DNA from: a virus
Taxonomy: Duplodnaviria > Heunggongvirae > Uroviricota > Caudoviricetes
DNA: 9,421 nt
Strand: one strand, 5' to 3'
IMG/VR virus record: IMGVR_UViG_2648501400_000007
Shown: positions 1 through 9,421 of the stretch, piece after piece
Layout of the letters: each line of letters opens with the position of its first letter
Position numbering within the stretch: position 1 is the stretch's first letter
Program-made: the position numbers and the translations under genes
Notes under the pieces: generated by a model
Databases searched by the model: none
Told to the model about the DNA's origin: nothing
What the model saw: only the letters and a program-made list of their open reading frames with translations

Positions 1-504
1 CGGGTGAGTGTGGCTGACGGGCGCCTTGCCGGCTGCAAGGTCGTATGCAGCCTTGACCGCCTTCGGCGTGGCAGCCTCAGTTTCTGATTGACTGTCCGTG
101 GCGCTGCTCAGTTGTACGGTGCCTTTTGCCGTCAGCGAGGCAGCAGGCACTCCCGTTATCTGACTCCACGGGTGAGTGTGGCTGACGGGCGCCTTGCCGG
201 CTGCAAGGTCGTATGCAGCCTTGACCGCCTTCGGCGTGGCAGCCTCAGTTTCTGATTGACTGTCCGTGACGCTGCTCAGTTGTACGGTGCCTTTTGCCGT
301 CAGCGAGGCAGCAGGCACTCCCGTTATCTGACTCCACGGGTGAGTGTGGCTGACGGGCGCCTTGCCGGCAGCCAGGTCATATGCAGCCTTGACGGCCTTT
401 GGTGTGGCGGCCTGCGTTTCAGAGGTGCTGTTGGTGGCACTGCTCAGTTGGGTGAACCCCTTAGCTGTCAGTGTCGCGTCCGGGTGGTTACGGGAACGTA
501 CGTG
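1..504. repeat. 168-bp (56-codon) in-frame tandem repeat inside the tail fiber gene: units 1-168 and 169-336 differ at one base, third unit 337-504 is diverged after about 32 nt
   Basis: Direct comparison of the sequence: 'cgggtgagtgtggctgacgggcgccttgccgg...' begins at 1, 169 and 337. The period is a multiple of 3 and the frame stays open. The array may continue beyond the window start. Confidence 0.9.
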
Positions 505-678
505 TTCAGCCAGTGACTGTGCGGCTTCCTCCGTTTTTTTCTTCAGCCATTTCGTCCTGTTTGCCAGTTGCCGGGGGGCTCGATTTGATATCCCGTCAGC
601 ACCACCCAGAACCGGATCTGATGTCTCCAGTTGATAGATATTTTCTTCCCACTTTTCTGTTTCATTCAGGTTTCCCAT
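1..678 (-). CDS. Tail fiber protein, N-terminal part (ATG at 678..676; 226 codons with no stop, continues beyond window start)
   Basis: My own translation of the minus strand from ATG 678..676 gives MGNLNETEKWEENIYQLETSDPVLGG...RSRNHPDATLTAKGFTQLSSATNSTSETQAATPKAVKAAYDLAAGKAPVSHTHPWSQITGVP..., with repeated 'TAKGxxQLSSxTxSxSETxAATPKAVKAAYDLAAGK' units typical of phage tail fiber repeats (P2 gpH / lambda Stf type). Starts 2 nt after the gpI-like stop. Absent from the ORF track, which appears to list only ORFs complete within the window. Confidence 0.85.
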   Translation of the reverse strand, partial: MGNLNETEKWEENIYQLETSDPVLGGADGISNRAPRQLANRTKWLKKKTEEAAQSLAEHVRSRNHPDATLTAKGFTQLSSATNSTSETQAATPKAVKAAYDLAAGKAPVSHTHPWSQITGVPAASLTAKGTVQLSSVTDSQSETEAATPKAVKAAYDLAAGKAPVSHTHPWSQITGVPAASLTAKGTVQLSSATDSQSETEAATPKAVKAAYDLAAGKAPVSHTHP

Positions 679-680
679 AA

Positions 681-1259
681 TCAACTGCTCCCGTGGTTAT
701 AACTGCCATCATGGATGGCGGTATTGTTATAGCGAATGGCCACAGACTGATACTCCAGGCTGGCCAGATGGCAGCGGGCCGGTGCAAATGCAGCGAGCGT
801 CTGACGCAGCATCGCGGCCTGATCGTTAGTAATGGGCTGTTTCAGAATAACGCGATAAACCGCCCAGGCGGTTGCATCTCCATGAACAAACAGTCCGCTA
901 TAGCTGCGATTGCCGTCGTAACTGAGACGACCTGTGCCTTCAATCAGATCCACTTCACCAAAGCCAAAACGGCGGATAACTTCCCGGATTGACCACGGCG
1001 TCCCTTTATACCGGTGCAGTTCGATGGCTGCTTTTATAAGCATGCGGCGAACATCGTCCGATTCCGCCAGCTCCCAGCCATCGCCAGACAGTGAGAACTG
1101 CTCGCCCAGCCATGGCAGCGCAGAACTGTCGACGATATCGACGAGAAAGACCATCAGTACGCTCAGGTCGATGTTATCCAGCCGCCCTGCCAGTCTTCCC
1201 AGCGTCCTGAGACTGATATCACCCTCAAGCGGTGGCGGGAGTTGTAATGGCTCAGTCAT
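681..1259 (-). CDS. Baseplate assembly protein, P2 gpI-like
   Basis: Track ORF 681..1271 (GTG start). I place the start at ATG 1259..1257, which overlaps the upstream gene stop as ATGACTGA (translational coupling). Position directly after the J-like gene and before the tail fiber matches P2/Mu baseplate order; size about 192 aa. Confidence 0.75.
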   Translation of the reverse strand: MTEPLQLPPPLEGDISLRTLGRLAGRLDNIDLSVLMVFLVDIVDSSALPWLGEQFSLSGDGWELAESDDVRRMLIKAAIELHRYKGTPWSIREVIRRFGFGEVDLIEGTGRLSYDGNRSYSGLFVHGDATAWAVYRVILKQPITNDQAAMLRQTLAAFAPARCHLASLEYQSVAIRYNNTAIHDGSYNHGSS

Positions 1260-2355
1260 CAGACACTCCACTCATGTTAAGTGTGATCGCCGTACAGTTT
1301 GCCCATTCGTTTTCTGCCACCACCCTCAGTGCCGGTGTCACCAGTTCAACCTGGTACACCCCGGAAACGGACAATGCACTGATAATCTGGCTGGGGACAA
1401 TATCACGCCCCAGCGTGGCGGCACGTGATGCCACCCAGTTCTGTATGGCGCTGTTAGCGGCATCTTTTACAGACCTGGCATCCTGATCACGATAGATCGT
1501 AATCCTGGCTTCAATGGTGTAATCCACCTTCACTGGTGTTTTAGCCCGCACTGTATCAGTGAGTGGCCTGACTTTCTCATCAGAGCAGAAACTCTCTACC
1601 AGCGTGAGAACACCGCCGTCCGGCAGACCGGTACTGAGCAGCGGATACAGATCTACGGTCCCGGGAACCGGGGAAAGCACAGCAACATCGACAATGTTGG
1701 GATGGGCCTGCATGGCATGAAAGCGGTATGCGCCACGGCTTCCGGCATTGGTGAATGACTCCGGGGCCAGCCTGATACGCTCCCGGAGCCTGTCATCGTC
1801 TTCCTGTTCTGAACCGCCGGAACTGGCCATCAGATTGCTCACCAGCAGGTTAACGTTATCAATCTCATCGAGTAACTGACTGACCTGCGCAGGTTGCCAG
1901 CCGTTACCAGCGGTACCGGGTTCGGTACAGGTGGCCGTGACATTGACCAGCAGCAATCCGGCCTTCAGTACCACATCTGTATCGGTGGCAAAAATAACGC
2001 TGTCGGAAGCGCTGACGCGGGTGCCTGCCGGGATCAGCACATCAATGGCCAGTGCCTCATCTACGGAGAACTGGAGCGTGGTGGTGGCAGGCTGCGCGGC
2101 AAGACGGTATACACCGACCAGTTCACCGAGGTAATCAATCATCGGCTCACGGGCAAAGGCGACCAGATTCTGCTTTGCTGCCTCCTGTACCGCAACCCTG
2201 ACCAGCATTTCGCGATAGGCCCACAGATCAATCAGCAGACGTTCTGCCTGTGCCGGGTACAGCGTTTTGCCGGTATCCGCTTCATACTTCGCAATCATTT
2301 CTGCCGTGATTTTGTCGGCATCGCGTTCAATAAAATCGGGTTCTGTCAGCGCCAT
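1252..2355 (-). CDS. Baseplate J-like protein (P2 gpJ family)
   Basis: 367-aa ORF with ATG at 2355..2353, overlapping the W-like stop by 10 nt. Size and position between the W-like and I-like genes match the baseplate wedge protein J of P2/Mu-type tails. Confidence 0.8.
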   Translation of the reverse strand: MALTEPDFIERDADKITAEMIAKYEADTGKTLYPAQAERLLIDLWAYREMLVRVAVQEAAKQNLVAFAREPMIDYLGELVGVYRLAAQPATTTLQFSVDEALAIDVLIPAGTRVSASDSVIFATDTDVVLKAGLLLVNVTATCTEPGTAGNGWQPAQVSQLLDEIDNVNLLVSNLMASSGGSEQEDDDRLRERIRLAPESFTNAGSRGAYRFHAMQAHPNIVDVAVLSPVPGTVDLYPLLSTGLPDGGVLTLVESFCSDEKVRPLTDTVRAKTPVKVDYTIEARITIYRDQDARSVKDAANSAIQNWVASRAATLGRDIVPSQIISALSVSGVYQVELVTPALRVVAENEWANCTAITLNMSGVSDD

Positions 2356-2693
2356 AGCAGCTCCTGAGTCCGGGTCTGTCCGTCTGAGCCTTTCCAGCTC
2401 ACCCGGAGCGTAAGATGTTCGCCGTCGACGGCGGGTTTAACTGACATAAGCTGGCAGCGGGGCTCCCAGCGCCGGATGGCATCGACGGATTCGCGCACCA
2501 CATGCGGAATGGCCCGGTCTACAGGCCAGTCGATATAAAGATGCAGATTGCTGCCGAACTCCGGGCGATGCGGGTCGCTGCCGCGGGGAGTCCGCAGGAT
2601 AATTTGAATCGCCTGCCGGATATCATCCAGCCCCCGGACAATTTCGCCGGGAGCCTGCAGGGCTGGTTGCCAGAATACTGAGGTTGTTTTCAT
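2346..2693 (-). CDS. Baseplate wedge protein, gpW/gp25-like
   Basis: 115-aa ORF, ATG at 2693..2691. Contains ...IxQxIxIILRTPxGSxPxRPEFGSxL...WEPR...SV..., resembling the P2 gpW / T4 gp25 family as I recall it; same length as P2 gpW. Confidence 0.8.
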   Translation of the reverse strand: MKTTSVFWQPALQAPGEIVRGLDDIRQAIQIILRTPRGSDPHRPEFGSNLHLYIDWPVDRAIPHVVRESVDAIRRWEPRCQLMSVKPAVDGEHLTLRVSWKGSDGQTRTQELLWR

Positions 2694-2711
2694 GGGGGCA
2701 GTATTGCCCCC
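2694..2711 (-). promoter_or_regulatory. Perfect 7-bp-stem hairpin (GGGGGCA-gtat-TGCCCCC) immediately 5' of the W-like start codon, within the only sizeable intergenic gap (54 nt) in the operon
   Basis: Seen directly in sequence at 2694-2711. No U-tract follows on either strand, so it is not a canonical intrinsic terminator; it could sequester a GGGGG Shine-Dalgarno-like element. Confidence 0.3.
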
Positions 2712-2747
2712 GTGCGGGAACGCTGATATTAAAGGCGTTTAAAAAGC

Positions 2748-3344
2748 TCAGTGGGAGTGGTGGCTGGAGTTTTCGCCATCAGACAACATACTGCCCGTGG
2801 CATGGGCATTCCCTTTAATCTCGATATTGCCATGGATGGTCGCGGTAACACCTTCACCACCAGAACCCGCCATGCCTCCTTCGTAAATCAGCTTACCCCT
2901 GACACGCAGATCTCCGGTAAGTTCGGTTTCCGGTGCGTCAATCGTGGCTTTCTGTGTTTTCAATACCACATCAGCACCACACTCAATGACAATATGCTCA
3001 ATGCCGCCCCGGATGATCAGAGTGTGCGTCTTCCGGTTGTAGCTGTACTCTGCACCATCAGCAAACCGGGTTCCCCGGATATTTTTGTCACTGAACGGTG
3101 GTTTATCGACGTCTGAATACACCGCGCCCAGAATAACACCATCCTCGCCGTTGGCATCGAGCAGCACCTCAACCTGCTCCCCCACGTCAGGGAGCCAGTA
3201 ATCTTTGTTATCCTGGGTATTGCGCTGCAGCACGTTAAGCCAGTTTGTGCGCAGGTTATCGCATTCAGGCAGACGAACGCGGGCCTGAACCCTGTCGGCA
3301 TCAACGGCACTGACCGTACCGACCTGACGAGTGACACCAGTCAT
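2748..3344 (-). CDS. Baseplate central spike protein, gpV-like
   Basis: 198-aa ORF, ATG at 3344..3342 overlapping the D-like stop (ATGA), preceded by AAGGAG. N-terminal part has W.PDVGEQVEVL similar to P2 gpV; C-terminus ends ...SSHHSH. Located between the hub and W-like genes. Confidence 0.8.
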   Translation of the reverse strand: MTGVTRQVGTVSAVDADRVQARVRLPECDNLRTNWLNVLQRNTQDNKDYWLPDVGEQVEVLLDANGEDGVILGAVYSDVDKPPFSDKNIRGTRFADGAEYSYNRKTHTLIIRGGIEHIVIECGADVVLKTQKATIDAPETELTGDLRVRGKLIYEGGMAGSGGEGVTATIHGNIEIKGNAHATGSMLSDGENSSHHSH

Positions 3345-4495
3345 TTTTTCTTCTCCTTAATCACCGTCGATGTACTGCCATCCGGGTGATAAACCGTGAG
3401 TTTCTGAGTTTTTTGTTTTTTCCCTCTTGTGACTGGCCCCCGTGCCACTTCCAGCTCTGTGGTGTAGCCGCTGTTACGGTCAAACGCATGGCGGGCAGTG
3501 GTTATGAGCCATGGCCCGGATAACTGCCCAAAACTCACCAGTTCAATTTTGTTGCCTGCTGCCAGTTGAGGTGTTCCCGTCAGCGTCAGGGAGCCGTTCT
3601 GCTGGTATTCGTTATGTCTGGCCAGTGCTGAATCCGCTTTAATCCGGGCACTGTCCGGGTCGCTGACGCGGCTGTTAACTTTAAGTGAGTCAGCGCTGGT
3701 AACCTTACCACCTTTGAGCTTTTTGTCGCTTTCACGGGTACCACCATCAGCTTCGTAGACGATCAGTTTTTTACTGCTGCTTTTCTGGTGTTTTACCTTT
3801 GCAGATTTATAGACCCGGTTGATGGTGTCACGCAGGGAAAAGCGGGCCACATCCTGCGGTTTTAACTGCCTGACCGGCTCCTGACTGCGCAGTGTGGCCA
3901 GATGAGAAAAAATCAGCTGGTCACTGACCACTTTCACTGCATAACCATACTCGCTGGCCAGCCGGCGCAGAAAACCCACGTCGGTTTCAGCATACTGGGT
4001 CACCCGGTCGATTCTGATGGACTCAATGCTGCCCACCAGTTTCAGTCGGTGCTTTCTGGCAATCCGCCCCGCAACAGCTGCCAGCGTGGTGTTCTCAAAA
4101 CCACGACTGATTTTAGTCCGCAGGGCACTGTTAACCGAGGTGGCCACCCCACGGATAGAAACAACGGAAGCGGGCGAACTCACTTCGATCTCGTCTATAG
4201 AGAACGTACCGCAGGACAGCAGCTTCTCGCCCTGATAGCCCATTTTCAGCGTCAGCGTGTCACCCTTGCCCGGATACCACTTATCCAGCCAGCGGCCATC
4301 GGTGTCGTCCAGCTCCACCTCAATGGTATCGGACTCATTTTTGATGTTATCGCTCCAGGTCACACGGGTGACATAAGGCGCGATATCAGAGGTGATGTTT
4401 TTCTGCAGATACCACAGAGTGAACACCGGTGTCAGCACATCGCTGACGCCGGTTAACGCTGATGTGACTTGCGCAGTGCTGTTTATCTCAGCCAT
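3341..4495 (-). CDS. Baseplate hub protein, P2 gpD-like (phage late control D family)
   Basis: 384-aa ORF (P2 gpD is of similar size), ATG at 4495..4493 overlapping the X-like stop by 13 nt. Position after U/X and before the spike gene. Confidence 0.8.
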   Translation of the reverse strand: MAEINSTAQVTSALTGVSDVLTPVFTLWYLQKNITSDIAPYVTRVTWSDNIKNESDTIEVELDDTDGRWLDKWYPGKGDTLTLKMGYQGEKLLSCGTFSIDEIEVSSPASVVSIRGVATSVNSALRTKISRGFENTTLAAVAGRIARKHRLKLVGSIESIRIDRVTQYAETDVGFLRRLASEYGYAVKVVSDQLIFSHLATLRSQEPVRQLKPQDVARFSLRDTINRVYKSAKVKHQKSSSKKLIVYEADGGTRESDKKLKGGKVTSADSLKVNSRVSDPDSARIKADSALARHNEYQQNGSLTLTGTPQLAAGNKIELVSFGQLSGPWLITTARHAFDRNSGYTTELEVARGPVTRGKKQKTQKLTVYHPDGSTSTVIKEKKK

Positions 4496-4695
4496 GGGGC
4501 AATATCCTCTTCTGTACGGGCTTCTTCAGCCTCAATCACCGGGATCAGTAACAACAGCCCGGAGGGCAGCACCGGCGTGATGGCCACGTGCGGATTGGCG
4601 GCAATAATCCGGGGATAGCCCAGCGGGTCACCGTAGTACTGCCATGCCAGCGAATCCCAGCGCTCTCCGTCACGGGTAACATGTTCAAGAAACAT
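4483..4695 (-). CDS. Tail protein X-like (LysM-type)
   Basis: 70 aa from ATG 4695..4693 (the track's 4698 start is a GTG one codon upstream). The ATG overlaps the upstream stop as TGATG. Sequence ...WDSLAWQYYGDP...IIAANP...LPSGLLLLIP matches the pattern I recall for P2 gpX (...YYG...LAANP...LP.G...LP). Confidence 0.75.
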   Translation of the reverse strand: MFLEHVTRDGERWDSLAWQYYGDPLGYPRIIAANPHVAITPVLPSGLLLLIPVIEAEEARTEEDIAPWLR

Positions 4696-5579
4696 CACAC
4701 ACTCCTCGTCAGTATTCTGGCGGCCATTGCACTTAATCCCGGAGACATGCGGTTGAATGCTGTGCCGGCGGCGTTAAGCTGCCCGGAAACGGTATCCAGA
4801 GCACCTGCAATATTTCTTTTGTCCACACCACTCAGCGCAGACTGTGCCTGCTGTACATACGTGGCTGCTTCGCTGGCTGTTCTGGCCAGACTGATGGCAT
4901 CGGGCATGGATTCAGAGAGTGCGTTAAACGCCGGAACACTTTTCCCCAGAGCCCCGGAGATATTACCCAGTCCGCTCATCAGCCCCGGCACACGGGTCAG
5001 TGCGACAACGGGGTTATCCTTCATTTTCTGTGTCACCCGAACGGCGCTGATAGTGGTCTGGAGTACAGACTGCGCCTGTTTCGCATAGTTGACGCCGTTG
5101 CGGATGAACTGCGCCACCCCGGAAGGTGAAGGAATGGCACCGGAGACCGCCCCGACACCCGGGAGCTTCGTGCGTATTGCCGGTGGTTGCAGAGGATTTT
5201 TCGGATCACCGGTGTATTCCCGGAGAGACACGGTGGCACTGACAGCCAGCACGTTACCGGTGCTGTCTGTCTGCTCGCTGGTTGCGGTCACATCGGTAAT
5301 CACGAACCAGCCACGATAGTCACCGTTGCCGAAGACCAGCGCCAGTGCCTGATGGGCTTTCATGGTTGTTCGCAGTCTCGCCAGCTCCACATCGGGTACA
5401 CAATAATGCTGATGGAAGACCAGACTGATCTGGATTTCGTCCAGCCTGTCGCCGACGAACTGCAGGCCAGGCTTACCCCCGATGCGGGCATGCTCCGCAT
5501 AATCGACGCCGAACGTGGCCTCGAAGCCGTCCCAGTAGGTAATCAGCTCAAACTCAATATCACCCAGTACGGCAAACAT
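4695..5579 (-). CDS. gpU-like tail protein (tail terminator / DNA-circulation-N-like N-terminal domain) with a long Ala/Ser/Gly-rich C-terminal extension
   Basis: 294-aa ORF, ATG at 5579..5577 overlapping the tape measure stop (TGATG). N-terminus MFAVLGDIEFELIT... resembles the gpU-family N-terminus as I recall it; position immediately after the tape measure gene. The family assignment is less certain than for neighbouring genes. Confidence 0.55.
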   Translation of the reverse strand: MFAVLGDIEFELITYWDGFEATFGVDYAEHARIGGKPGLQFVGDRLDEIQISLVFHQHYCVPDVELARLRTTMKAHQALALVFGNGDYRGWFVITDVTATSEQTDSTGNVLAVSATVSLREYTGDPKNPLQPPAIRTKLPGVGAVSGAIPSPSGVAQFIRNGVNYAKQAQSVLQTTISAVRVTQKMKDNPVVALTRVPGLMSGLGNISGALGKSVPAFNALSESMPDAISLARTASEAATYVQQAQSALSGVDKRNIAGALDTVSGQLNAAGTAFNRMSPGLSAMAARILTRSV

Positions 5580-8530
5580 CAGCGGTACTCCTTACGTTGT
5601 TTCTGAGCCAGCAGACGCTCCAGCATTTTTTCCAGCTCATGCAGACTCATATTCAGGGCACCAGTCAGTCCTGCAGGCGCTGTGGTTTCTCTGCCATTGA
5701 GGAAAAACTGAGGATTAAAGCTGACCTGGATACCACCAGACGTTCCACCGCCGGTTGCAACTGCACCACGGCCTGAATATCCGGCAGCCAGGATTTCAGG
5801 CGAGGGGATACGGGGAACATCCGGTGTCATCTCATTTGCCAGACGTTGCCCTGGTAAAATCGATGCCCGGGTGGAGAGCGGGATAGCGGGCATGGAAGAC
5901 AAACTATTGATTACGGCTCCGATCGCATTTTTAGCAGACGACATAAACCCGTTGATATCGGGCAACGGCATACTGAAGCGAACACCTGAAGTGTTATCCC
6001 GTATTTCTGGCCCCTGAATGCTCACGGGCATTCTGGGGAGCAGTTCACTGGCCATTCGCTGCCCGGCCAGAGCTGCAAGCGGAGTGGTCCGCTGCAGGCC
6101 AATGGCGGCCCCCTGCGCGATATTGTCACCAAAGCCCATAAACACGCGGCTCGGCGAATGAATACCCAGCTTTTCACTGAACCAGCCACTGATGCTGTCA
6201 CCCATTCCGGTTACACTGGATTTGAGCGACTCCCATTTGTTTTTGATACCGTTAATCAGACCGTCGACAAGATGGCCACCGAAGTCGGTGAACTTTGCCG
6301 GCAGATCAACACCAAGATATTTCAGCGCAGCTGCAAAGGCTTTATAGAGCAGACCTGCCGGCGACCAGTTAATCAGCAGCTTACCAGTTCCCGCGATACC
6401 GCCGTTAAAGGCTTCCTGAATGTCAGCCCAGCACTGTTTAAACCAGCTACTGATGCTGTCACCCATTCCGGTTACACTGGATTTGAGCGACCCCCATTTG
6501 TTTTTGATACCGTTAATCAGACCGTCGATAAGATGGCCACCGAAGTCGGTGAACTTTGCCGGCAGAGCAACGCCGAAATATTTCAGCGCAGCCGCAAAGG
6601 CTTTATAGAGCAGGCCTGCCGGCGACCAGTTAATCAGTAACTTACCAATTCCCACAATGCCGCCGTTAAAGGCTTCCTGAATGTCTGCCCAGCGCTGTTT
6701 AAACCAGCCACTGACTGCCCCCCAGTTGCGGTAGATAAGGTAAGCTGCTGCCGCGACAGCGGTGATAACGAGACCGATGGGATTCATCATCAGCGCACGT
6801 CCAATCCAGAGAACAGCACGTCCGGCGAGCATAATTCCGCGAACCAGCCCCCCGGAGAGCACGCCACTCAGTGTTCTGGCTCCTCTGGCGACGGCGCTAA
6901 ATCCGGTCACCAGCCAGCGGAGCTTACCGCCTTGCCCCAGTGCGAGCGACAGACGAAGCCAGTTGGCCCGAAGTAAAACAGCATTTTTCCAGACACTTAC
7001 AAAGGGGGAAATAAGGAGATTCAGCCCCAGTTTGAGACCAACAGTCGCTATCTTAATCGCAAGGAGCGCACTGATGAGCTTAAAAGCCCCACTGACAAAT
7101 TGCGGGTGAGTCGCTACCCAGTGTTTTGCCCCCTGAATGAGTGGAAGCAGTTCCTGAGTCAAAGAAATAAAAGATGGAGCTAATTGATCGCCCAGCGTAA
7201 TTGCCAGATCGCGACTGCTGACCATAAGTGTTTTAGTGGCTTCAAGGGGAGATTTCAGCCGCTGATCATAAGCACTGGCAAGCAAATCGTTATCCGCAGC
7301 CCTGAGAGCACCGGCACGGATCTCTCGATATCTGTCCATGTTGGCCAGCATCGGGCGGATAAATGCCATGACCTGCATATCCGCGAACATATCGCCCAGA
7401 CCAAAGTTTTTCGCCAGAGCCTGAAGTGCCTCATCTCTTGCCGTATCATTCTTTATTTTCATGGCTGATTTGAAGCCGGCCAGCGCTTCGGGGCTTTTGG
7501 CATTGAGGTAACGTTCTATAACACTCAACATCCCTTCAATCGGAGAGATCCCCGCAGCTTTATAACTCGCAATAGATCCCTGCAAATCAATACCCAGATC
7601 AGCAAACTGTTTCTGAGTATCGCGGGCAAAAATTTTGGTAAGAAAGTTTTTAAAATTATTGGCTGCTTCGTCGGTGGAACCTGCACCGATTTTTGCTATC
7701 TGGAGACTGGCCCCGATTTCAGCAACAACCTCTTTTCCACTGGCAATACCCGCCATCATTGGGGCCAGGGACTGCATCCACTTGACCTGATCCGGGATTT
7801 CAAATGACCCCTGGTCACCGGCATAAGCCATAATATTCTGAACGGCACCAAAATCTCTGGCCGCACCTTTCAGGGAGTTTTGCCAGACTGCGGCCACTTT
7901 TGCCCAGTCCTGAGCAGACGTGCGTGTTGCCGTTGCCGCGCGGGCAATATCCGGCATCAGAAAACCGATATCTGACACATTATCAATATTGTCGCTGATG
8001 AGTGAACCCACCGCCTCCTGCAGCTCATCCTGATACTGATTGTATTTAAGCGCCCAGCCTTTTATCTGTCCGGCAAGTCCATCCCGCGTTTTATTGTCAT
8101 ATTTTGCGGTGATCGACATATCAATCATTTTGTCCTGAAAAGACATGGACTGCTGAACGGCAGGGGAAACCGTATGATAAACAGTCTGTGCCATGCCATA
8201 CGCTTCAATCCCCTGACCATACAGCGCCATGCGGTTAGCTTTCAGCGCATCACTGGTAGCGGATGCCGCTGACAGACGGCGCTGCTGGCGCTCAATTTGC
8301 TCCATGGTGCGGCTTACCCGCAGCAGCTCGCTGTTGAGATGCTGCATCCGGGAAGAACCCAGTTGACCATAACGTTCTGTTGCACGGGTTAAAGCGTTCT
8401 GACGTTCCTGCAGGCGGCGTGAGGTATCGCTCAGGGAATCAAGCGCACGGCGGGTACCGCTCATTGCAGAACGGAATGTGCTGCCAATCATCCCGCCGAT
8501 AACAACGCCGACTGAAAACTGTCCCGACAT
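5579..8530 (-). CDS. Tail tape measure protein
   Basis: 983-aa ORF, ATG at 8530..8528 preceded by GGAGG. Has a coiled-coil-like N-terminal region, a hydrophobic/glycine-rich central region, and an internal tandem repeat; located directly downstream of the chaperone E/E' pair. Size and composition are typical of myovirus tape measure proteins. Confidence 0.9.
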   Translation of the reverse strand: MSGQFSVGVVIGGMIGSTFRSAMSGTRRALDSLSDTSRRLQERQNALTRATERYGQLGSSRMQHLNSELLRVSRTMEQIERQQRRLSAASATSDALKANRMALYGQGIEAYGMAQTVYHTVSPAVQQSMSFQDKMIDMSITAKYDNKTRDGLAGQIKGWALKYNQYQDELQEAVGSLISDNIDNVSDIGFLMPDIARAATATRTSAQDWAKVAAVWQNSLKGAARDFGAVQNIMAYAGDQGSFEIPDQVKWMQSLAPMMAGIASGKEVVAEIGASLQIAKIGAGSTDEAANNFKNFLTKIFARDTQKQFADLGIDLQGSIASYKAAGISPIEGMLSVIERYLNAKSPEALAGFKSAMKIKNDTARDEALQALAKNFGLGDMFADMQVMAFIRPMLANMDRYREIRAGALRAADNDLLASAYDQRLKSPLEATKTLMVSSRDLAITLGDQLAPSFISLTQELLPLIQGAKHWVATHPQFVSGAFKLISALLAIKIATVGLKLGLNLLISPFVSVWKNAVLLRANWLRLSLALGQGGKLRWLVTGFSAVARGARTLSGVLSGGLVRGIMLAGRAVLWIGRALMMNPIGLVITAVAAAAYLIYRNWGAVSGWFKQRWADIQEAFNGGIVGIGKLLINWSPAGLLYKAFAAALKYFGVALPAKFTDFGGHLIDGLINGIKNKWGSLKSSVTGMGDSISSWFKQCWADIQEAFNGGIAGTGKLLINWSPAGLLYKAFAAALKYLGVDLPAKFTDFGGHLVDGLINGIKNKWESLKSSVTGMGDSISGWFSEKLGIHSPSRVFMGFGDNIAQGAAIGLQRTTPLAALAGQRMASELLPRMPVSIQGPEIRDNTSGVRFSMPLPDINGFMSSAKNAIGAVINSLSSMPAIPLSTRASILPGQRLANEMTPDVPRIPSPEILAAGYSGRGAVATGGGTSGGIQVSFNPQFFLNGRETTAPAGLTGALNMSLHELEKMLERLLAQKQRKEYR
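6181..6717. repeat. 261-bp (87-codon) in-frame tandem duplication inside the tape measure gene: two full units (6181-6441, 6442-6702), roughly 90% identical by eye, plus the first ~15 nt of a third
   Basis: Direct sequence comparison: 'accagc(c/t)actgatgctgtcacccattccggttacactggatttgagcgac...' recurs with period 261. At protein level the block WFKQ(R/C)WADIQEAFNGGI...GMGDSIS is duplicated. Confidence 0.9.
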
Positions 8531-8605
8531 AGTGGTTAACCTCCGGGGAAGGTGAAAAGACGTGAGGGGATAACGCAGAACAGCCGCTACTGGCGGCTGT
8601 CTGTA

Positions 8606-9023
8606 CTATGATTTGTCGCCGTACTCGCTTTTTATTTGCTCTTCAGCCTGCTCCAGCCACATCTCCAGATCGTCAGTATCGAGGGCATCAATCTCCCCCG
8701 GCTGAAACCGGAACCATCTCGCCAGCAGCCCCTGCGCCTGCGTCAGCGCCCTGGTTGCTCTCACCCATCCCCGTGATGAGCTGAAATCGTTTCTGTAACT
8801 GCAGGTAATCAGCCAGATCCATATTGTCGAGATCTTCCGGGAGAAGACCAGTACTGCGGGCAATCAGCGGTTCGTCCCAGTCTGCCGGGTTTTTGCTGAT
8901 TTTGCGCACCTGCTTCAGGTCTTTTACCGTCAGGCGTTTCAGTTCAACCAGCTCAATTCTGGTGCCTGCAGCAGTGGTGAAGGGATAAGACAATTTAAAA
9001 GTATCGGATGGGGTCTGTGACAT
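8606..9023 (-). CDS. Predicted frameshift fusion product of the chaperone (E+E'-like); the E' frame is +1 (equivalently -2) relative to E and is open from 8863 to the stop at 8608..8606
   Basis: Second ORF (track 8606..8863, TTG-initiated, no Shine-Dalgarno) overlaps the last 176 nt of E in another frame and ends 75 nt before the tape measure start. My codon-by-codon comparison shows E' codons begin 1 nt 3' of E codons. Candidate shift site is the G-run in GCC-GGG-GGA (minus strand 8702..8694), three codons before the E stop. Confidence 0.5.
8688..9023 (-). CDS. Tail assembly chaperone (P2 gpE / lambda gpG analogue)
   Basis: 111-aa ORF, ATG at 9023..9021 preceded by AGGAG. Small acidic protein immediately upstream of the tape measure gene with an overlapping second frame, the conserved arrangement of tail chaperone pairs. 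Confidence 0.75.
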   Translation of the reverse strand: MSQTPSDTFKLSYPFTTAAGTRIELVELKRLTVKDLKQVRKISKNPADWDEPLIARSTGLLPEDLDNMDLADYLQLQKRFQLITGMGESNQGADAGAGAAGEMVPVSAGGD

Positions 9024-9091
9024 GATTGTGCTCCTGTGTAAGTTCAGGGCAGTATGTCGGGAGAAGCGCGTGACGGATATTAAAGGAGATT

Positions 9092-9113
9092 AAGAAGAAG
9101 GGGCCGGAGCCCC
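9092..9113 (-). terminator. Candidate intrinsic terminator on the minus strand (GGGGC-tccg-GCCCC followed by TTCTTCTT) between the upstream ORF remnant and the chaperone gene
   Basis: Seen in sequence: GC-rich 5-bp stem at 9100-9113 with a T-rich 3' tail at 9092-9099 (minus-strand sense), 7 nt after the remnant ORF stop codon. The stem is short and the tail is interrupted by C, so it is weak or partial. Confidence 0.3.
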
Positions 9114-9120
9114 TGTGATG

Positions 9121-9324
9121 TCAGCAAGTGCGAAACCCCTTGCAGTTACGCAGGAAAGCGATGAGAAGCGTCTTTCCCTCAGATTTGCCGATGCCGGAGA
9201 ACCAGTGGTCGGGAGGCTCCCATGCTTCAATCAAATCCGCCAGTTTGCGGGCCTTTGAACGTGTGCAGTCAATCGGGTCATTGGTTTTACGGGTATTAAA
9301 AAGGGTTTCCCCCCCCGGAATATC
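9121..9324 (-). pseudogene. 3' remnant (67 codons plus stop) of a gene apparently truncated by the adjacent IS insertion; product unknown (tail tube expected by position but not recognised by sequence)
   Basis: The minus-strand frame is open from the first base outside the IS end (9324) to TGA at 9123..9121, with no in-frame ATG/GTG and only a late TTG: DIPGGETLFNTRKTNDPIDCTRSKARKLADLIEAWEPPDHWFSGIGKSEGKTLLIAFLRNCKGFRTC*. Confidence 0.4.
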
Positions 9325-9421
9325 CTGTCTCTTGATCAGATCTCCTGATCAAGAGACTTCATCACCAGGTAACCCTCAACCATATCCTGAAGTCTGAACC
9401 AGCCATCCCACATGACTACCC
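9325..9421. mobile_element. Terminus of an IS50-family (IS4 family) insertion sequence; element body extends to the right beyond the window
   Basis: 9325-9343 reads CTGTCTCTTGATCAGATCT, which is the 19-bp IS50 inside-end sequence as I remember it, including its two GATC sites. A transposase-like ORF on the minus strand terminates inside this repeat, as in IS50. Sequence diverges from IS50 immediately inside the 19 bp, so it is a relative rather than IS50 itself. Confidence 0.7.
9336..9421 (-). CDS. Transposase, C-terminal 27 codons (IS50/Tn5 Tnp-like), partial; 5' end beyond window
   Basis: Minus-strand translation ...VVMWDGWFRLQDMVEGYLVMKSLDQEI* with stop TGA at 9338..9336 inside the terminal repeat. 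Aligns with the Tn5 transposase C-terminus as I recall it (...WEGWEALQSKLDGFLAAKDLMAQGIKI): W.GW..LQ....G.L..K.L pattern. Confidence 0.6.
   Translation of the reverse strand, partial: VVMWDGWFRLQDMVEGYLVMKSLDQEI

Follow-up and report, generated by a model that had tools for sequence, protein, structure and literature searches.

The right-hand edge of this stretch of DNA, where what resembles one terminus of an insertion sequence (IS) abuts an open frame without a start codon in a phage tail gene cluster, raises the question of whether a tail-cluster gene has been disrupted, by which element, and with what effect on the genes downstream. The stretch analysed (the window, 9,421 bp; Table 1) is the whole of draft contig JHSW01000071.1 (assembly GCA_001266175.1) in reverse orientation, one of three contigs returned by an exact look-up of the tape measure protein. 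It belongs to a prophage of the PhiKM type (genus Bcepmuvirus, BcepMu-like), with 98.2% nucleotide identity to PhiKM across window positions 34-9324. At the right end the sequence reads ...ccccccccggaatatc followed directly by CTGTCTCTTGATCAGATCTCCTGATCAAGAGACTTCATC..., the boundary between prophage and IS lying at 9324/9325.

The contig breaks on the right 97 bp into a multi-copy IS and on the left inside a 168 bp tandem repeat of the tail fibre gene, both of which are typical short-read assembly breaks. Because the contig ends inside the IS, the window does not extend to the other IS end, to the target duplication or to codons 1-26 of the interrupted gene. The first-pass annotation had placed the element at the upstream edge of the tail operon, a description that does not stand: the sheath and tube genes are found upstream of the insertion point in relatives, hence the insertion lies midway along a string of tail genes, and the apparent operon edge is the contig edge.

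Table 1. Coordinates of the features at and around the prophage-IS boundary of the window
Feature	Position	Strand	Remarks
Tape measure gene, 983 aa, intact	5579..8530	-	Protein identical in two assemblies without the IS
Tail assembly chaperone gene (E-type), 111 aa, PF10109	8688..9023	-	First intact gene downstream of the insertion
Terminator-like hairpin AGGGGCTCCGGCCCCT then TCTTCTTAAT	9099..9114	-	Consensus match only
Remnant of the 93-aa gene, codons 27-93 plus stop	9121..9324	-	Colinear with the intact allele
Predicted left target-duplication copy	9317..9324		8-bp case, GGAATATC; 9-bp case, CGGAATATC, starting at 9316
ISEc13 inside-end-like terminus, 97 bp	9325..9421	-	Agrees with annotated ISEc13 copies at 97/97 bases
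19-bp terminal inverted repeat CTGTCTCTTGATCAGATCT	9325..9343		Identical to the IS50 inside end
Subterminal palindrome, 13-bp arms (9327-9339 and 9345-9357), 5-nt loop	9327..9357		Folding
Transposase tail, last 27 codons plus stop: VVMWDGWFRLQDMVEGYLVMKSLDQEI, ending ...WDGWFRLQDMVEGYLVMKSLDQEI	9336..9419	-	Translation

Identity of the inserted element

The 19 bp adjoining the boundary had been annotated as the inside end of IS50, and comparison with the Tn5 copy of plasmid pSTM6-275 confirmed this. In that plasmid the reverse complement of 9325-9343, AGATCTGATCAAGAGACAG, abuts the aph(3')-IIa leader and is preceded by the 3' end of the IS50 transposase gene (...AAKDLMAQGIKI and stop), the stop codon of which lies within the 19-mer; the 19-mer is therefore the IS50 inside end. 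The repeat contains two GATC (Dam) sites, a third being found at 9347-9350. It also fits the end consensus of the IS50 subgroup of the IS4 family at C1, T2, T9, C13, A14, A16 and T19, the subgroup comprising elements of 1350-1550 bp that have ends of the form CW------Y---CA-A--W-, possess the YREK motif and generate direct repeats of 8-9 bp (PMC2266710). The frame resembling a transposase (Tnp) C-terminus, previously noted as ending inside the terminus, does so, with its TGA at 9336-9338 within the terminal repeat, and its 27 codons align to the C-terminal dimerisation region of Tn5 Tnp (...WEGWEALQSKLDGFLAAKDL).

The homology search of the IS that the first-pass annotation had proposed as a check matched all 97 of the IS bases present in the window to annotated ISEc13: 9325-9421 is 100% identical to copies labelled 'IS4-like element ISEc13 family transposase' that occur on numerous E. 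coli chromosomes and plasmids, and identity of this extent places the terminus far beyond chance. Copies of the 97 bp occur at 30 places in EPEC E2348/69, and at up to 30-32 per genome. Judged by its sequence, the element is ISEc13, a catalogued E. coli IS of the IS4 family and IS50 subgroup, and not IS50 itself; the original assignment to the IS50 family holds at the level of the subgroup but not for the element, the transposase of which is 39% identical to Tn5 Tnp.

A full ISEc13 copy, read at L002:2501-4050, is 1550 bp long and has one inside-end (IE)-like terminus, as in the window, and one outside-end (OE)-like terminus, CTGTCTCTTATACACAAAT, which differs at two positions from the IS50 outside end. 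Its 457 aa transposase matches Tn5 Tnp, the structure of which has been solved, with E = 7e-83 across the same 39% identity, and has retained both the DDE residues (D in EDTT, D in CDREAD) and, when aligned to Tn5 Tnp, a complete YREK motif (Y-x2-R-x3-E-x6-K in YERRWLIEEYHKAWK, Y..RW.IEE..KAWK). Pfam assigns it the Tnp_DNA_bind and DDE_Tnp_1 domains, with the Tn5 dimerisation domain scoring slightly below threshold. The 27 transposase codons in the window, a part that excludes the catalytic region, are identical to those of this copy.

The split gene and its neighbourhood

On the prophage side, the start-less frame was found as first described: 67 codons on the minus strand, running from 9324, the first base outside the IS, to 9124, with a TGA at 9121-9123. 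Followed upstream, the same frame reaches a stop nine codons away inside the IS, with no ATG, GTG or TTG between. The homology search suggested for this remnant proved informative, as the remnant is colinear with a conserved 93-aa gene belonging to phrog_1239. In strain 510016 the homologous stretch runs on into an intact gene of this kind (WP_000110114.1), which has a GTG start and reads VSVELTDKGGRCAALGMSNGTWFTLL then DIPGVETLF..., and the remnant corresponds exactly to its codons 27-93. Intact 93-aa genes are present in L001, L003 and L004, three loci carrying related prophages, and in phage PhiKM. The earlier proposal that the IS split a gene of the tail cluster was borne out by this correspondence and by the near-identical prophages, described below, in which the gene is uninterrupted. 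The remnant lacks the ribosome-binding site, the GTG start and the first 26 codons, and the allele is null, because the start codon has gone and residues 1-26, to which the predicted fold assigns two strands and a helix, are missing.

Two other identities for the remnant were rejected. It is not a fragment of the tube gene, the tube being encoded by a separate upstream gene of 174 aa (PF04985, E = 3e-53), a family to which the intact 93-aa protein shows no match; that the remnant was not initially recognised as a tube protein was correct, as the tube gene is the next one upstream in intact relatives. Nor is it a complete small gene with an odd start, a reading raised at the outset, since the 3' two-thirds of a conserved gene of 93 aa are colinear with it and an empty site exists. 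In strain 510016 the products of the genes to either side of the 93-aa gene are annotated as 'phage major tail tube protein' and 'phage tail assembly protein', with the sheath gene further upstream.

The intact allele matches phrog_1239, a family of unknown function, across residues 1-93 of 93 (E = 4.7e-48). The Pfam model DUF7739 (PF24881) scores 24.7 bits on the intact protein, relative to a gathering cut-off of 27 bits, and is listed in precomputed tables for two close homologues (P0001 and P0002). All 33 homologues retrieved from sequence databases are labelled 'hypothetical', PADLOC defence models returned nothing for the gene, and a sequence-profile search of the PDB found nothing credible (E = 0.83). 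A confident AlphaFold2 model built from 15 homologues (pLDDT 88.7) has the order strand-strand-helix, helix, helix, strand; Foldseek retrieved no match for it below E = 0.08 in the PDB, and only uncharacterised phage proteins in BFVD.

Homologues of about 42% identity are found in the P22-like phages Sf6 (gene 22, encoding gp22), HK75 and CUS-3, in the early-left accessory region, Sf6 gene 22 being situated between an Ea22-like gene and DUF2737, near abc2 and a Lar-like gene. A homologue of similar identity, in Edwardsiella phage EPP-1, adjoins rdgC near the integrase gene, and further ones occur in phages of about 92-100 kb. The location of homologues in P22-like early regions makes it probable that the split gene is a portable accessory one which is carried in the tail operon, and that it does not belong to the core tail components. 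In one of the phages of about 92-100 kb, Yersinia phage fHe-Yen8-01, a distant homologue (L066:2001-2309, 39% identical) bears the annotation 'particle associated protein', and only a few genes separate it from a large gene for a particle-associated ADP-ribosyltransferase toxin, which constitutes the only functional hint for the family; on the basis of that single annotation, a virion role for the 93-aa protein is possible.

Further features of the surrounding sequence were noted. The split gene contains a run of eight C at 9309-9316 (eight G in the sense of the gene), created by a Val31-to-Gly change, which is common to L003 and L004 and absent from strain 510016; in the protein database, several variants of the gene (P0019, P0021 and P0023) have an N-terminal portion that is out of frame until roughly this run, which suggests that the region may be prone to slippage. 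Positions 1-450 hold 2.7 copies (93% matches) of the 168 bp tandem repeat of the tail fibre gene, of which L003 has more copies, while a 261 bp tandem duplication within the tape measure gene (6180-6714; 2.0 copies, 93% matches) was also identified. The tape measure protein has 983 aa here and 1070 aa in strain 510016, and size variation of this kind among relatives would change tail length. The split gene is followed, seven bases beyond its stop codon and ahead of the chaperone gene, by the terminator-like hairpin of 9099-9114, with six pairs of which five are G-C. The hairpin is also found in the intact relative L001, sits within what is presumed to be a single tail operon, and could be either a moron terminator or an attenuator setting the ratio of tube to chaperone expression.

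Insertion and its alternatives

Taken together, ISEc13 very probably inserted between 9324 and 9325, after codon 26 of the 93-aa gene of a BcepMu-like E. coli prophage. The transposase gene and the tail genes read in the same direction, right to left, and it is the inside-end-like terminus that abuts the 3' two-thirds of the split gene. Two assemblies supply near-identical prophages for comparison: L003 (GCA_047714965.1) has three mismatches against window positions 1-9324 (9324 bp) and L004 (GCA_015138655.1) two mismatches in 8954 bp, both having an intact 93-aa gene and no IS, and both encoding a tape measure protein identical to that of the window. The empty site, ...ccccggaatatc^aaggagggtaaacc, is present in L001, L003 and L004, the latter two reading without interruption ...ccccccccggaatatc^aaggagggtaaacc.... 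The other genes of the window have the same lengths as in these empty-site relatives, and the earlier suggestion of an inactivated or decaying prophage finds no sign of decay to support it, the other tail genes being two to three bases from those relatives.

The junction was sought widely. At least 80% of the window is contained in 452 of 5,426 complete E. coli genomes, none of the 5,426 has a match crossing 9324/9325, and the best matches to 8500-9421 end at base 9324. Contigs representing one genome per species gave no exact match to the junction, and JGI metagenomes matched neither the observed junction nor the predicted other junction, with 0-2 extra bases allowed. A 72-aa ORF called across the junction from a CTG in the terminal repeat (9121-9339, minus strand; M-IKRQ and then the 67 remnant residues) is a chimeric annotation artefact of five IS-derived and 67 remnant codons; among 153 billion gene positions it occurs only in contig JHSW01000071.1, the look-up finding nothing with a leucine start and the source contig alone with M as the first residue. 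As near-identical prophages have an empty site and the junction is absent from the other genomes and metagenomes searched, we infer from these sequence comparisons that the insertion is recent and essentially private to the isolate.

The event envisaged is a cut-and-paste DDE transposition of the Tn5 type, with a staggered target cut of 8-9 bp at (C)GGAATATC. The full element, its OE-like terminus, the second target copy and the first 26 codons would then be on another contig of the same draft assembly, separated from the window by the break 97 bp into a multi-copy repeat. The other junction is predicted to read ...GTGTATAAGAGACAG then (C)GGAATATC-AAGGAGGGTAAACC; that is, GTGTATAAGAGACAG would be followed by GGAATATC or CGGAATATC and then by AAGGAGGGTAAACCACG.

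The flanks of ISEc13 at two independent chromosomal sites have 8 bp duplications, CCGCTCGG and CCGGGCGG (comparing L002:2492-2500 with 4051-4059, and L061:1593-1600 with 3151-3158). Four further loci represent one ancestral site between ybaZ and ybaY, hence only two independent sites were available for comparison. In both, the element lies in the loop of a GC-rich palindromic terminator, in one case downstream of satP and in the other between ybaZ and ybaY. By contrast, the target proposed here is coding sequence and weakly palindromic, a difference that counts against a simple insertion. The copy between ybaZ and ybaY is the same in all four of the unrelated strains sampled and looks old and widespread, and relatives of ISEc13 in other genera also lie within palindromes, with 8-10 matching flank bases.

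An unlikely but more serious competitor than the others is that the junction arose through an IS-mediated rearrangement, such as an adjacent deletion, an inversion or recombination between two ISEc13 copies, whereby the first 26 codons and the tube, sheath and head genes would have been deleted or moved and the prophage truncated. Only a single junction is visible, the contig ends in the IS, and an element present at up to 30-32 places per genome would favour IS-IS recombination; however, a short-read assembly of a simple insertion would also break 97 bp into the repeat, the junction falls exactly on the terminal base of the IS, and the 9.3 kb of flanking sequence, at 99.97% identity to intact prophages, shows no other damage. 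It is considerably less credible that the 97 bp are a dead fragment consisting of a truncated or solo end of ISEc13. IS fragments are common in E. coli and 97 bp at most can be seen in the window, yet these bases are 100% identical to full copies that look active, and an assembly break within the IS implies that it continues as a repeat common to other loci. Least probable of all is an assembly chimera joining the prophage contig to unrelated IS read-through, for although the junction is at the end of a draft contig whose left end is also in a repeat, a join exactly on base 1 of the terminal inverted repeat would not be expected, and two samples are recorded with the contig.

Subterminal palindromes and the consequences of insertion

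The 13 bp inverted copy of the terminal repeat reported in the first-pass annotation is present, the arms GTCTCTTGATCAG (9327-9339) and CTGATCAAGAGAC (9345-9357) being perfect reverse complements, but it is not the unusual feature it was held to be, the palindrome recurring in every ISEc13 copy examined and in related elements. One arm corresponds to positions 3-15 of the terminal repeat and the other codes for transposase residues (K)SLDQ; folded as RNA, the palindrome has energies of -21.3 kcal/mol on the plus strand and -21.6 kcal/mol on the minus strand (z = -4.4 and -3.7 relative to shuffles). A survey of 53 loci with transposase relatives found stems of 12-13 bp in an enterobacterial group of 70-99% amino acid identity (Escherichia, Scandinavium, Pantoea, Buttiauxella, Klebsiella and Phytobacter), and of 6-11 bp in an Alteromonadales-type group with about 49% amino acid identity to the transposase. 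The loci concerned are window positions 9327-9357 and the transposase 3' ends of L006, L008, L013-L017, L023-L025, L037, L041, L044, L049 and L052; no inside-end palindrome was found in the remaining relative groups among the 53.

Across 15 distinct elements, the serine codon of the coding arm is TCT in every case and the leucine codon CTT in 14, the gene-wide shares in those elements being 6-23% of serine codons for TCT and 5-28% of leucine codons for CTT; a control leucine four codons upstream of the coding arm is encoded by CTG, CTT, CTA, CTC or TTA. So fixed a choice argues for a nucleotide-level constraint and suggests that selection may act on the DNA or RNA structure of the palindrome as well as on the protein.

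The outside end of relatives carries CTGTCTCTTATACACAAATCCC, a variable stem-loop and then GGGGATTTTTTTGAAC, together resembling an inward-facing intrinsic terminator. The hairpin overlaps the last bases of the repeat and has 6-7 T after it, just ahead of the transposase gene (first ~50 bases of the outside-end-like terminus in L008, L013, L015, L017, L023, L025, L041 and L053), and five of 12 pairs show compensatory changes on both sides. ISEc13 has an altered hairpin at its outside end (L002:4013-4050), CACAAATCCCC-ACCC-GGGGATTTGTG, without the T run, and its leader is 63 nt longer than in the relatives with the outside-end hairpin. An Rfam search with the hairpins gave no match. It can be proposed tentatively, and with less than even confidence, that the subterminal palindromes of ISEc13-type elements are functional, selected structures rather than accidents of sequence. 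Our best guess is that they might insulate the element against outside transcription or modulate transposase binding at its ends: the hairpins may form inward transcription barriers against read-through from host or phage, or serve as decoy transposase-binding half-sites that tune end usage. If the palindromes are functional, the orientation of an insertion would set the strength of its polarity on the downstream tail genes.

In the orientation observed, late phage transcripts would enter ISEc13 at the OE-like terminus, run in the transposase sense, leave through 9325 and go on to the remnant and chaperone gene. On the transposase-sense strand of ISEc13 a simple scan found no terminator-like site, and on the antisense strand (L002:2965-3382) it found five, where 1.2 would be expected from shuffles; these antisense sites could stop transcripts entering from the inside end. 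Because element and operon are co-oriented and the sense strand has no terminator-like site, the polarity exerted on the genes for chaperone, tape measure and baseplate may be partial. The insertion may lower the expression of downstream tail genes in an otherwise intact BcepMu-like prophage and, if the split gene is accessory, phage viability would hinge mainly on late read-through of the 1.55 kb IS.

A known IS, here in an ordinary copy, occupies a new and strain-specific site in a prophage that is common; the insertion of ISEc13 is a single private event that inactivates a small phage gene, and it matters little beyond the strain. The junction is usable as a strain marker, and the isolate represents a natural null mutant of the phrog_1239 gene; the prophage, if inducible, would show whether tails can be assembled without that gene. 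For the regulation of Tn5-like elements, the hairpins conserved near the ends in the ISEc13 lineage offer a minor lead.

Compared with known systems, PhiKM and related E. coli prophages have the same order of sheath, tube, 93-aa gene, chaperone and tape measure, and the cluster occurs without the IS in PhiKM and in at least 452 complete E. coli genomes. Proteins of the phrog_1239/DUF7739-like type, such as Sf6 gp22, are otherwise encoded in early accessory regions, whereas here the gene is in the tail operon. IS50/Tn5 and ISEc13 have in common the 19 bp inside end with a stop codon in it, an OE-like terminus, the DDE and YREK residues, an N-terminal DNA-binding domain and a C-terminal dimerisation region. 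They differ in their transposases, which are only 39% identical, and in the target duplication, which is 9 bp for IS50 and 8 bp at the two ISEc13 sites; furthermore, IS50 lacks the 13 bp subterminal palindrome and carries instead a 5 bp version, GATCA/TGATC. With respect to ISEc13 itself, the visible 97 bp, the terminal repeat, the transposase C-terminus and the subterminal palindrome are all the same, and the insertion site alone is new.
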